A stretch of 28,225 bases of DNA, from positions 1 through 28,225 of the IMG/VR virus record IMGVR_UViG_2526164619_000012; one strand, given 5' to 3'. The position numbers and the translations under genes were made by a program. The stretch comes from a virus (taxonomy: Duplodnaviria; Heunggongvirae; Uroviricota; Caudoviricetes). Below, piece after piece: positions 8,828 through 13,476 of this stretch (positions are counted from its first letter, which is position 1; every line of letters starts with the position of its first letter). The notes beneath the pieces were generated by a model. It was not told the origin of the DNA. It saw nothing but the letters and a program-made list of their open reading frames with translations, and did no database searches.

Positions 8828-9154
8828 GGAGCCTGAAGCGACAACTGAATGAAAACAAACGCTACTGGCAGGAACTGGAAGTGGCGCAGGGCGACTGGAA
8901 AAACGGTGCCATGCGGGCGTTTCAGAATTTTACGGCGGATGCGGATAATGCGGCGAGAACGGCAGAACAGATGTTTACAGTGGCATTCAGCAGTGCCGGT
9001 AATGCACTGGCGACATTCTGTACCACCGGTAAGCTGAATTTTAAATCCTTCACCTCTTCCCTGTTGTCAGATATGGCCAGAATTATGGCACAGATGGCCG
9101 GTAATGCTGCCAACTTACTGATTTAGTGTATGATGGTGATTTTAAGGTGCTTGC

Positions 9155-9430
9155 GTGGCTTCCATTTCCATCAGATGTCCTTCCTGCTCCGCTACTGAAG
9201 GCGTGGTGCGTAACGGCAAAAGCACTGCCGGACATCAGCGCTATCTCTGCTCTCATTGCCGTAAAACATGGCAACTACAGTTCACTTACACCGCCTCTCA
9301 GCCCGGTACGCACCAGAAAATCATTGATATGGCCATGAATGGCGTCGGATGTCGCGCCAGTGCACGCATTATGGGCGTTGGCCTCAACACGGTTTTACGT
9401 CACTTAAAAAACTCAGGCCGCAGTCGGTAA
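9155..9430 (+). CDS. insA: IS1 InsA
   Basis: 91 aa, [43 protein letters not shown]... Confidence 0.9.
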
Positions 9431-9852
9431 CCTCGCGCATACAACCGGGCAGTGATGTGATTGTCTGCGCTGAAATGGACGAACAGTGGGGCTACGTCGG
9501 TGCTAAATCACGTCAGCGCTGGCTGTTTTACGCGTATGACAGGATACGGAGGACGGTTGTGGCGCACGTCTTCGGTGAACGCACTCTGGCCACACTGGAG
9601 CGTCTTCTGAGCCTGCTGTCGGCCTTTGAGGTCGTGGTATGGATGACGGATGGCTGGCCGCTGTATGAATCACGCCTGAAGGGAAAGCTGCACGTTATCA
9701 GCAAGCGTTACACTCAGCGCATTGAGCGACATAATCTGAATCTGAGACAACATCTGGCAAGGCTGGGACGGAAGTCACTGTCGTTCTCAAAATCGGTGGA
9801 GCTGCATGACAAGGTCATCGGGCATTATCTGAACATAAAACACTATCAGTAA
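9349..9852 (+). CDS. insB: IS1 InsB (expressed as an InsAB' frameshift product)
   Basis: 167-aa ORF overlapping insA in the -1 frame, as is typical of IS1. Confidence 0.85.
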
Positions 9853-10286
9853 GTTGGAGTCATTACCCAGATGGCCATGATGCAGGCGGTAAAGGGCGTC
9901 GGTTCTTTATTCGGCTTCACGACTAATGCTGATGGCGGTGTTTACCAGTCTGCTGATTTGAGTCGCTACAGTGGCACGGTGGTTAACCGTCCGACGTTTT
10001 TTGCTTTTGCAAAAGGCGCGGGTGTGATGGGGGAAGCGGGACCTGAAGCCATTCTGCCACTGCGTCGCGGTGCTGATGGTAAGCTGGGGGTTGTGGCGGA
10101 TACTGGTGGTTCAGGCATGGTGATGTTTGCCCCGCAGTACAACATCGGGATCAATAACGACGGCACGAACGGGCAGATAGGTCCGGCAGCACTGAAGGTG
10201 GTTTATGACCTCGGGAAAAAAGCGGCCGCGGACTTTATGCAACAGCAGGCCCGTGATGGTGACCGGTTAAGTGGAGCATACCGGTA

Positions 10287-10616
10287 ATGGAGACGTTTCG
10301 CTGGAAGGTGCGCCCGGATATGAATGTGGTATCAGAGCCAAAAGTGGTGGCAGTGAAGCTGGGTGATGGTTATGAACAGCGTCGCCCGGCGGGACTGAAT
10401 AATCTGCTGTCGACTTACAGCGTGACGATACGTGTTCGTAAAGGTGAACACCCACCTTTAAAAGCCTTTCTGGAACGGCACGGTGGCGTCCGCGCATTTC
10501 AGTGGACGCCACCTTATGACTGGAAACCGATCAGGGTGGTTTGTCGTAAATGGTCGGCAAGCGTGGGGGCGTTATGGGTGACTGTAACGGCCGATTTTGA
10601 ACAGGTGGTGAACTGA
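10287..10616 (+). CDS. M: Minor tail protein M
   Basis: 109 aa, METFRWKVRPDMNVVSEPKVVAVKLGDGYEQRRPAGLNNLLSTYSVTIRV...; co-linear with lambda M (MKTFRWKVKPGMDVASVPSVRKVRFGDGYSQRAPAGLNANLKTYSV...). Confidence 0.85.
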   Translation: METFRWKVRPDMNVVSEPKVVAVKLGDGYEQRRPAGLNNLLSTYSVTIRVRKGEHPPLKAFLERHGGVRAFQWTPPYDWKPIRVVCRKWSASVGALWVTVTADFEQVVN

Positions 10617-11115
10617 TGCAGGATATCCGGCAGGAAACACTGAATGAATGCACCCGTGCGGAGCAGTCGGCCAGCGTGGTGCTCTGGGAAATCGACCTGA
10701 CAGAGGTCGGTGGAGAACGTTATTTTTCTGTAATGAGCAGAACGAAAAAGGTGAGCCGGTCACCTGGCAGGGGCGACAGTATCAGCCGTATCCCATTCAG
10801 GGGAGTGGTTTTGAACTGAATGGCAAAGGCACCAGTACGCGCCCCACGCTGACGGTTTCTAACCTGTACGGTATGGTCGCCGGGATGGCGGAAGATCTGC
10901 AGAGTCTGGTCGGCGGAACGGTGGTCCGGCGTAAGGTTTACGCCCGTTTTCTGGATGCGGTGAACTTCGTCAACGGAAACAGTGACGCCGATCCGGAGCA
11001 GGAGGTGATCAGCCGCTGGCGCATCGAGCAGTGCAGCGAACTGAGCGCGGTCAGTGCCTCTTTTGTGCTGGCCACACCAACGGAGACGGATGGCGCGGTT
11101 TTCCCGGGGCGTATC
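10616..11115 (+). pseudogene. L: Tail assembly protein L, N-terminal 156 codons (frameshifted and truncated at the inversion breakpoint)
   Basis: MQDIRQETLNECTRAEQSASVVLWEIDLTEVGGERYF then a frameshift in the T5 run at 10723-10727 (lambda continues ...FFCNEQNEKGEPVTWQ, which is readable in the next frame). Homology ends at ...AVFPGRI (11115). Confidence 0.75.
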
Positions 11116-11116
11116 A

Positions 11117-13476
11117 CCCCTTCAGCACCTCCTCAGCCCTCCGGTAGTCCTCCGTCCCGTAAGTGCCTTTCTGGCGACTGTCATTCTCAAGCTGTTGCAA
11201 CTGTTGCCGGTATTCCTGCCGGATGCGCAACTGTGCCTGGTAGCGCTGCCGCTGCTTATCCCCCATACCTGCAGTGGCAATATCCAGATTGTGCTGCTCA
11301 CGCAGTGCACGTTCTTTGTCTGCCAGCTGGCTGGTCAGCTGAACCGTTTTTTTCTCAGGTCGTTAAGCGCTGTCTGTTTCTGCAGCTCCTGCTGTTTCAC
11401 ATCCAGCAGCGTCAGCGCCTGAATCAGCTCATTCTTACGGGCCAGCACACTCTTTTCATCTGCCGTCAGCTTTTTCCCGTCCAGGTCGCTGATGCGCTGC
11501 TGCAGGGCCAGAAGCTGTTTATGCGCTTCAGTCATCCTTTCAGTGGCAATGCCTGCTGACTGTCTGGCAGCAGCAATCTGCCCTTCCACCTGTGCCTGCT
11601 GCTGACTGTACTGCAGCAATAACCGGGTGGCCTCATCATTACGGGTTGCCCGTGTATTTTTCTTAATGGCTTTTTCGTAACGTTCATTTTCACGCTGTAT
11701 CGCCGCATCCCTGACAGCCTAGTCGGCGTACTGCATGGCATTAATACGCGCAATTTCCCGCTGATGTCGTGCAGCTTCCGTTTCATTCATCCGGTTCAGC
11801 GCGGCATTTTCAGCATTCCGGCGTTTCTGTTGCTCCTGGTAATTCCGTTCTGCCTGCGCTTTTGCATCCTGCAAATCCTTCCGGCGTTTTTTCTCCTGAA
11901 GATCGTTAAGACGCTGCTGATCGTACTCCACCTGTGTGGAGGCGTTTGTCCACGGATATTTTTTCGCGCGCTGAATTTTTTCCTGTAACGCATCAATCTG
12001 CGCATCCAGCGAGTCTTCACGACCAATATTCATGGCCGCATCCCAGAACTGCTTCCACCAGTCAGACAAGGTTTGCAGCGTACTACCCAGCGCATTGAGA
12101 TTATTATCAATATCAGATGTGCGTTTACCGGTTTCCTCTGCCAGCGCAGACATGGCGATCCGGGCCGCATCACTGGACCGCCCCTGCTCCCCAAGGACGC
12201 GTATCTGCTCAAGCTGAGTGGCAGTCAAAAAATGCAGCGCATTGTCCAGCGCCTTCGCGGCATTTACAGGATCATCCTTCAGCCGCTTAAACTGATTTAT
12301 GGTATCGCTGACCGACTGGCCAACCGATCGCTCCATCTGTGCGGCAGCTTTCGCCACCATACCAATATCGTTTCCATGAAATGCCCCACTGCCCACCACC
12401 TGTGCCAGCGCACCGGCTGCCGCATGTTGCGTGATACCATTCCCGGATATGGCCCGGCTGAGTTTCCACAACTGCCCGACAGTGACACCGGCATAATGTC
12501 CCGTCAGCGCCAGCTGACGGTTAAATTCCTCGCCCTCCTTCCGGCCGTCATGCCAGGCTTTACCCAGACCCAGGACCGCCGCGACAAGTCCGCCAATAAC
12601 GCCGCCAGTCATCATGCCTTTCGGCGACATCAGTGCGCCTGTCCATCCGGCACGGTTAGCCAGCGTTATCCCGGATCCCCTCAGCGCACCAAAATTGCCG
12701 CGCGCCATCTGACTGATTAACCCCCCCAGCTCCCGCCGGGCTGCCGCACTTTTCAGCCCCAGCGAATGTGTGGCTTTTCCTGCCCGCTCCATTTTGCGGA
12801 TATACACTTCTGCAGCACTGCTTACCCCCAGCTGAGCCGCCCTGGCGCGAAGCAACTCAGAAGACGACAGATTCTGGCGGGTTGCCTGCTCTTTAAGCTG
12901 GCGGATAAACGCCGCTTTCTGCCGGGTGGCCTGTTCCTCTGCCTGCGTCAGGGCACGGGTTTTCGCCGTGATCTCCGAAATCAACGCCAGATAATCCTGC
13001 TGACCAACCCCGCCACTGTTTCTGGCCTGTCGGATCTGCTGCTGAATACGCTGTAATTCCTGAAGCCCCGCACCGGCCTGTTTCACACTGTCAATCTGGC
13101 GATAAAAGGCGGCAGCCGCTTTATCCTGCGCCTCCGCCAGTGCCCTGGCCTGCGCCTGTTCCTCGCGCATTTTCTGATTCAGGGCATCCACGCGCAGACG
13201 GGTTTGTTCCACCTCACGGGCCATGCGTTCATGAGCCCGTGCATTCTTCTCCACCGTCTGCGCATGGGCTGATGCTGCTGTTACAGCCGAAGAAGCCGCC
13301 TGCATTGTCTGCCGGGCCGCCTGAGTCTGACGCTCCATAAAACGCTGCATACGGGCAGAAGACCGTTCTGCATCACCGGCTGCACCATTCAGAAGGTTTT
13401 TGATACGGGGAATTTCATTTTTAAACTCTGCCGCATCAATCCCCAAATCAATGACCAGGTTGGCTATCTGGTCCAT
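11117..13476 (-). pseudogene. H: Tape measure protein H, N-terminal part (amber stop plus homopolymer frameshift, truncated at the inversion breakpoint)
   Basis: Starts MDQIANLVIDLGIDAAEF... (lambda MAEPVGDLVVDLSLDAARF...). In-frame TAG at 11719-11721, after which the same frame continues (...AMQYAD*AVRDAAIQRENERYEKA...). A second break in the A7 run (plus-strand T-run 11347-11353) is followed by a coiled-coil frame that ends ...EEVLKG at 11117. Confidence 0.8.

Follow-up and report, generated by a model that had tools for sequence, protein, structure and literature searches.

Results

An inverted segment splits tail genes H and L of a Shigella prophage

The DNA analysed here, referred to as the window, corresponds to bases 1-28,225 of contig AKMY01000052.1, which belongs to the Shigella flexneri K-315 assembly GCA_000268165.1. 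It carries a defective, lambda-like, ipaH-carrying prophage located at the btsS-mlrA (yehV) locus of K-315 and close relatives. The minus strand of the window encodes the tail genes J, I, K and the end of L, and then the start of H, T, G, V, U and Z; the block in between, at positions 8828-11116, reads on the plus strand and comprises the end of the tape-measure gene H (interrupted by the insertion sequence (IS) element IS1), M and the start of L. Taken in reverse complement, this block corresponds to the H(C-terminus)-M-L(N-terminus) portion of one lambda-like tail module. The inversion measures 2,289 bp, of which 1,512 bp are phage DNA, 768 bp are IS1 and 9 bp are a copy of its target duplication. 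The coordinates of all features are collected in Table 1.

The reference for an intact module was the prophage of enteroinvasive Escherichia coli (EIEC) CFSAN029787 (NZ_CP011416.1, 372-378 kb; designated L001), in which K, L, M and H are annotated as intact, colinear and on one strand. The two modules share 99-100% nucleotide identity around both breakpoints, ipaH and btsS flank the EIEC prophage as they do that in the window, and the gene orders are equal once the segment has been re-inverted and IS1 removed. The H-M-L-K-I-J module of CFSAN029787 differs, however, in being uninverted, in having neither IS1 nor the nonsense codon present in K-315 H, and in carrying ATG at L codon 168. As judged from colinearity with L001, the tail order Z-U-V-G-T-H-M-L-K-I-J on a single strand is obtained in the window only after 8828-11116 is re-inverted, and H-M-L colinearity is regained when IS1 and one copy of the duplication are taken out as well. 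Precomputed Pfam hits place the lambda-like family domains TMP_2 and Tape_meas_lam_C in H, Phage_min_tail in M and Phage_tail_L in L. The sequence shows that a single reciprocal exchange linked codon 787 of H, in inverted orientation, with codon 168 of L. The synteny with CFSAN029787 confirms the first-pass annotation of this DNA, which had proposed a reciprocal inversion within one tail module splitting both genes.

The intact H gene has 1013 codons and is broken after codon 787 (...EEVLKG/SLKRQ...), and the intact L gene has 232 codons and is broken at codon 168. The resulting pieces are exactly complementary, codons 1-787 of H being matched by codons 788-1013 and codons 1-167 of L by codons 169-232, and both the M gene and the tail module are present once. 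In addition, the H-to-Z side of the window (8827-15964) is 99.1-99.8% identical to the EIEC prophage. An origin of the plus-strand pieces in a second, independent tail module is therefore ruled out, since they are exactly complementary to the remainder and all match one EIEC prophage.

The pieces differ in size from those first proposed. The N-terminal part of H had been put at approximately 590 codons, a figure that corresponds to an open reading frame (ORF) ending at the nonsense codon (codon 586, window positions 11719-11721), which is also found in other assemblies; the piece itself extends over 787 codons. Likewise, the plus-strand part of L consists of 167 codons and the first base of codon 168, not of 156 codons. 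The minus-strand location given for the C-terminal part of L was correct, but its extent, given as 8827 to 8632 and about 65 codons, becomes 8633-8827, corresponding to codons 169-232 and the stop codon. The translation of this fragment, LANTCMWTYRSDECGY...SINKLSQ followed by the stop, agrees with the intact L of L001, and K starts directly downstream at 8628. The C-terminal part of H opens with GG, repeating the final two bases of codon 787, and Tape_meas_lam_C is recorded on an 81-residue ORF at 8881-9126. The second piece of the H C-terminus contains a 138-residue ORF (9871-10287) that is present on nine contigs from other assemblies, while the 585-residue TMP_2 ORF is called in K-315 and in two further contigs (L008 and L010).

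Both junctions also lie within ORFs. A junction-spanning protein cluster comprises three alleles of 303, 314 and 250 residues, the last of which is found on six contigs. At the left junction, a 127-residue ORF gave no record in an exact look-up and a 69-residue ORF is recorded only in K-315. Entries of 250-314 residues annotated as 'minor tail protein L' are chimeras in which L is fused to antisense H.

The two junctions carry a 2-bp footprint

In the EIEC relative, which has the ancestral-type sites, the H site is CTGAAGG-GG-AGCCTG and the L site GTATCA-TG-CTGGCG. In the window, the left junction reads CGCCAG/GG/AGCCTG and the right junction GTATCA/CC/CCTTCAG, where the CC at 11117-11118 is an H-derived dinucleotide standing in place of the TG of L. 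Each junction carries the GG of H, and the TG of L has been lost. When the restored sequence was aligned globally with the EIEC module, colinearity with an intact lambda-like H-M-L region was recovered, and the only junction-associated changes were a gain of GG at H and a loss of TG at L. Because one G is ambiguous, a duplication of 3 bp together with a loss of 3 bp is an alternative reading of the footprint; the overall length is unchanged in either case, and no phage sequence was lost or gained beyond the footprint. The exchange had been described as precise: it was reciprocal, but the replacement of the TG of L by the GG/CC of H means that it was not quite precise.

The ancestral L sequence is ATCATGCTGG; at one junction the two breakpoints have no nucleotide in common, and at the other no more than a single one (G). 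A different ancestor can be envisaged, in which L already read ATC-ACC-CTG (the uninverted ATCACCCTGGCG allele); short-homology recombination or template switching would then have produced a precise exchange inside an inverted GGG/CCC microhomology of 3 bp. Re-inverting 8828-11116 does give a base-perfect result if L has ACC; two adjacent substitutions would, however, be required exactly at the future breakpoint. The two versions were compared in 5,426 complete E. coli genomes using two 54-mers in which every 28-nt seed word covers the dinucleotide. The ATG version was found in 381 genomes at 812 places, whereas the ACC version was found in none. The same pattern is seen in proteins. Among 125 L-related proteins read from a collection of 5.8 billion (120 listed hits of the L search and five further members of the junction cluster), 77 contain the motif FPGRI, which continues as FPGRIM in 74; FPGRIT occurs in only three, all of them junction-spanning chimeras, and GRITL in none of the 77. 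Microhomology was dropped as the primary reading following the ATG-versus-ACC test and is considered unlikely.

Given that ancestral L codon 168 is ATG, seen in 381 genomes against none for ACC, the GGG/CCC trinucleotide arose through the event and was not its substrate. The original proposal of illegitimate recombination is upheld, although the trinucleotide that it took to be shared by the ancestral sites was made by the event, those sites having no more than 1 nt in common. Restoration of L as ...GRIT/LANTC was correct in frame, but the ancestral residue is Met (GRIMLANTC) instead of Thr.

The inversion is present in other isolates

Carrier contigs were retrieved by exact-protein look-up of the H fragments that flank IS1. 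In addition to K-315, the arrangement was found in GCA_049894805.1, in GCA_026136285.1 and in the Logan assemblies of SRR066117, SRR066119 and ERR6006326, giving six sample accessions in all. The junction 54-mers are identical in the assemblies under the five other accessions, that of the left junction being found in contig L006 (from GCA_049894805.1) and that of the right junction in contigs L003, L008, L009, L010 and L011. GCA_049894805.1 contributes two contigs ending in IS1, one from each side; carrier contigs that end in IS1 are as expected for short reads. The H nonsense codon, IS1 and the inversion are common to the carriers, and the orientation is the same in every carrier contig obtained. 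The re-inverted orientation with ACC at L codon 168 did not occur in the complete E. coli genomes.

The carrier contigs are identical to the window except in the lengths of two homopolymers. In the K-315 assembly, L is frameshifted at approximately 10722 (T5 versus T6), a frameshift that is absent from contigs L008-L011, and a second H frameshift lies at approximately 11346 (A7 versus A8, or T7 versus T8 on the plus strand). Because the carrier contigs differ from the window in these homopolymer lengths, the two frameshifts are specific to the assembly or the strain. The runs, one base shorter in K-315 (T5 and T7) than in three or four other assemblies, are probably sequencing errors or slippage. 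Since K-315 is a draft assembly with homopolymer differences at 10722 and 11346, the inversion might itself be suspected to be an assembly artefact, the alternative raised alongside it being the second tail module considered above. Such an origin is scarcely credible, and an assembly error is ruled out by the identical junctions under five other sample accessions. The inversion is a true structural variant, and neither a mis-assembly nor a composite of two prophages. Its inheritance is clonal, and it has become fixed among a group of closely related isolates.

The inversion was absent from the 5,426 complete E. coli genomes. Megablast of the junction regions against this collection returned thousands of related prophages, with a maximum coverage of 61% for either query, and all alignments ended at window position 8827 (left query) or began at 11117 (right query). 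The closest matches, at 99.8-100% identity, were EIEC such as CFSAN029787. A 28-mer from the left junction had no exact match among GTDB species representatives, a result that is uninformative as Shigella is not separately represented there. The strain name K-315 was met in the literature in incidental mentions only.

IS elements and recombinase sites at the breakpoints

Shigella genomes are IS-rich and the window itself holds three copies of IS1 and one of IS600; moreover, another part of the prophage is rearranged beside an IS1 that has no target duplication. Intramolecular transposition of IS1, or recombination between inverted IS copies, was thus an obvious candidate for the inversion. However, no IS sequence is present at either junction, where phage DNA is joined directly to phage DNA. 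The IS1 element in H lies 272 bp and 1,249 bp from the junctions, is bordered on both sides by contiguous H sequence, and retains an intact, direct 9-bp target duplication, CAGATGGCC, at 9091-9099 and 9868-9876. By eye, the ends of the segment are unlike the ends of IS1. An IS1-mediated inversion was accordingly rejected on junction anatomy, by which it is effectively refuted, and we regard IS involvement as very improbable. The earlier statement that the event was not IS-mediated, and that the internal IS1 has its own intact duplication, is borne out by the copies of CAGATGGCC on both sides of the element.

No inverted repeat bracketing the segment was found. An imperfect 27-nt inverted repeat with 74% complementarity links an IS1-internal stretch (9195-9221) to the right junction (11099-11125); it was judged to be a chance match because 59 such pairs occur in 2.75 kb, and a comparable pair (I2; 28 nt, 71%) touches neither junction. 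Copies of CTGAAG, the recognition sequence of Eco57I/AcuI, flank the H breakpoint; cleavage by this enzyme takes place at a distance of 16/14 nt from CTGAAG and cannot account for the break.

A further candidate is a serine recombinase, for example a Shigella-resident invertase of the Pin/Din family, acting on two cryptic pseudo-sites. In such a scheme, 2-bp staggered cuts would be made at GG in H and at CA/TG in L, and the resulting heteroduplexes would be repaired to the H sequence ('localized conversion'). Crossover by serine recombinases such as Hin, Gin and Cin has a 2-bp reciprocal geometry, and the event seen here is reciprocal, leaves a footprint of exactly 2 bp (3 bp with the ambiguous G) and brings no net change in length. 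The footprint is compatible with a 2-bp crossover, although it is not specific for one. Against this, the two ancestral 26-bp sites are unlike each other, sharing 5 of 24 flanking positions (null mean 5.9, P = 0.73), and each shows dyad symmetry at only 1 of 12 positions. Matches to the 26-bp Din-family crossover consensus numbered 6 and 2 of the 18 specified positions, which is within chance. No invertase gene was found in the window, where IS1 DDE and IS600 rve were the only transposase or recombinase families among the ORFs covered by Pfam (10 ORFs scanned in 18.4-28.1 kb, and precomputed families for called genes up to approximately 21.6 kb). Finally, an extra repair step would be needed to leave H-type sequence at both junctions. 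Taken together, a serine recombinase is an improbable agent of the inversion.

The inversion lies in a decaying prophage

The window spans almost the whole prophage remnant, since pieces of ipaH and mlrA stand at its two edges. The shared lesions comprise the H nonsense codon, IS1 in H, a fusion of K and I, the loss of head and lysis genes, and the other IS elements; genes for terminase, portal and lysis are missing. Compared with lambda and the EIEC relative, I has a frameshifted C-terminus, and the same sequence is present in GCA_049894805.1. On the J-to-ipaH side (1-8827), identity to the EIEC prophage is only 97.5% with 10 gap openings, a drop that points to mosaic exchange around J and the tail fibre. 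A mosaic boundary lies at 15964-17232, near-identity to the CFSAN029787 prophage ending right after Z, and the head-proximal genes are of the Gifsy-2 PF13856, Phage_cement_2 and Phage_capsid_4 types, not those of lambda FII/FI/E/D.

The second IS1 (left flank TAACGTATT, right flank AGCTGTATT) has no target-site duplication and truncates a Phage_capsid_4 gene (16654-17232), and therefore marks an IS1-associated deletion or rearrangement. The early/regulatory (replication-Q) block that adjoins it lies on the strand opposite to the tail genes, whereas in the intact EIEC relative these genes share a strand with the tail genes. The block represents another inversion, larger than the first, whose left boundary is the IS1 without duplication. 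The third IS1 retains an intact 9-bp duplication, GTATTGATT; 2 of its 768 positions differ from those of the copy in H.

Table 1. Coordinates of the prophage features in the 28,225-bp window and of the matching regions in the EIEC prophage L001.
Feature	Window position	Strand or orientation	Remarks
Match to L001 4795-13597	1-8827	+	megablast
Match to L001 15113-14841	8827-9099	-	megablast, 99.6% identity
Match to L001 14849-13600	9868-11116	-	megablast
Match to L001 15111-19959	11117-15964	+	megablast
ipaH (NEL-domain E3 ligase), 3' part	7-885		left window edge
K-I fused ORF, 430 residues	7336-8628	-	
L C-terminal fragment, codons 169-232 and stop	8633-8827	-	colinear with L001 13403-13597
Left junction, CGCCAG/GGAGCC, 8827/8828	8822-8833		reverse complement of L codons 169-170 joined to GG and H codon 788 onward
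H C-terminal piece 1, GG and codons 788 to ~877, up to IS1	8828-9099	+	L001 15113-14841 reversed, 99.6%
IS1 in H, 768 bp	9100-9867	+	terminal inverted repeats; DDE_Tnp_IS1 on ORF 9349-9852
H C-terminal piece 2, to H stop	9868-10287	+	L001 14849-14430 reversed
M, 109 codons	10287-10616	+	intact but inverted versus rest of tail module; Phage_min_tail; L001 14101-14430
L N-terminal fragment, codons 1-167 and first base of 168	10616-11116	+	L001 14101-13600 reversed; Phage_tail_L
Right junction, GTATCA/CCCCTT, 11116/11117	11111-11122		L codon 167 and A joined to reverse complement of H codons 786-787
H N-terminal fragment, codons 1-787	11117-13476	-	colinear with L001 15111-17471
Second IS1	17334-18101	-	
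Early/regulatory (replication-Q) block	18102-23543	+	
DnaB-like helicase	20194-21585	+	
RusA	21839-22213	+	
Antiterminator Q	22210-23031	+	
tRNA-Ile-like stretch	~23158-23250		
Third IS1	23544-24311	+	
IS600 (IS3 family)	~26000-27313	-	ORFs 26947-27249 and 26105-26911; between phage remnant and mlrA
mlrA (yehV) fragment	27577-28107		right window edge

Discussion

The explanation that we favour, with a probability of roughly 0.8, is a single homology-independent, reciprocal break-and-rejoin event in an already decaying prophage, fixed by drift and without function. An illegitimate break-and-rejoin is indicated because an IS element, an inverted repeat and a recombinase site have each been excluded at the junctions. 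The event may have begun with two short, staggered double-strand breaks, one in H and one in L, the ends of which would then have been rejoined reciprocally without homology; topoisomerase-type subunit exchange and end-joining of two breaks are the candidate routes. The footprint suggests that heteroduplex or overhangs were resolved in favour of the H sequence, giving GG at both junctions. The many lesions in the prophage imply that there was no selection to keep the tail genes intact; as the prophage had ceased to function beforehand, drift would have fixed the inversion. The latter serves no function, and is a further inactivating lesion that yields chimeric ORFs.

Several points weigh against this explanation. 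The enzymatic mechanism of the exchange is limited to candidate routes. An equal gain and loss of 2 bp is unusual for two independent end-joining events, and to our knowledge E. coli and Shigella have no classical non-homologous end joining. The stagger produced by DNA gyrase is 4 bp and not 2 bp, and a footprint of 2-3 bp, as reasoned from the junction sequences, does not fit a simple 4-bp gyrase heteroduplex. The carriers are nearly identical (0 SNPs (single-nucleotide polymorphisms) in up to 7.6 kb), so that the event has been seen once. In addition, the collection of complete genomes consists of E. coli only.

Among known systems, the inversion resembles illegitimate recombination in E. 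coli in its reciprocal rejoining without homology or IS and in its tiny junction footprint. Ikeda and co-workers are said to have proposed a DNA gyrase subunit-exchange model for such events; that model differs in its 4-bp stagger, as against the 2-3 bp footprint here. The classical examples are reportedly deletions or aberrant phage excisions, and not 1.5-kb inversions.

A second likeness is to the Cin/cixQ system of phage P1, whose quasi-sites were reportedly described by Iida and Hiestand-Nauer in 1986. There, too, an inversion is said to be accompanied by a 2-bp change confined to the crossover, with no other loss. In contrast, the breakpoints here have neither consensus match nor dyad symmetry, neither an invertase gene nor an enhancer was identified in the window, and a single orientation is found in every carrier. 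It is improbable that the symmetric footprint is the scar of a serine recombinase, or of another enzyme with a 2-bp stagger, at work on non-canonical sites in a Shigella population in nature. Were it so, it would be an uncommon case, outside the laboratory, of a chromosomal inversion fixed through the off-target activity of a recombinase.

The setting is that of the IS-mediated inversions and prophage decay seen in Shigella: an IS-riddled, defective, ipaH-bearing lambdoid prophage with nonsense codons, frameshifts, deletions and rearranged blocks. This inversion differs from those mediated by IS in having no IS at its ends.

Homology-independent break-and-rejoin in a dead prophage is a known type of event, of which this inversion is a new instance; it belongs to ordinary prophage decay and, being a single event, opens no larger question. 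For annotation, the split H and L genes of the K-315 contig serve as a warning that entries for 'minor tail protein L' of 250-314 residues are chimeras. The two junction 54-mers, neither of which is present in the 5,426 complete E. coli genomes, provide a clean clonal marker for one S. flexneri lineage. As for mechanism, in a genome whose rearrangements are as a rule ascribed to IS elements, the locus offers a tidy natural case of reciprocal inversion that involved neither IS nor homology and left a footprint of 2 bp.

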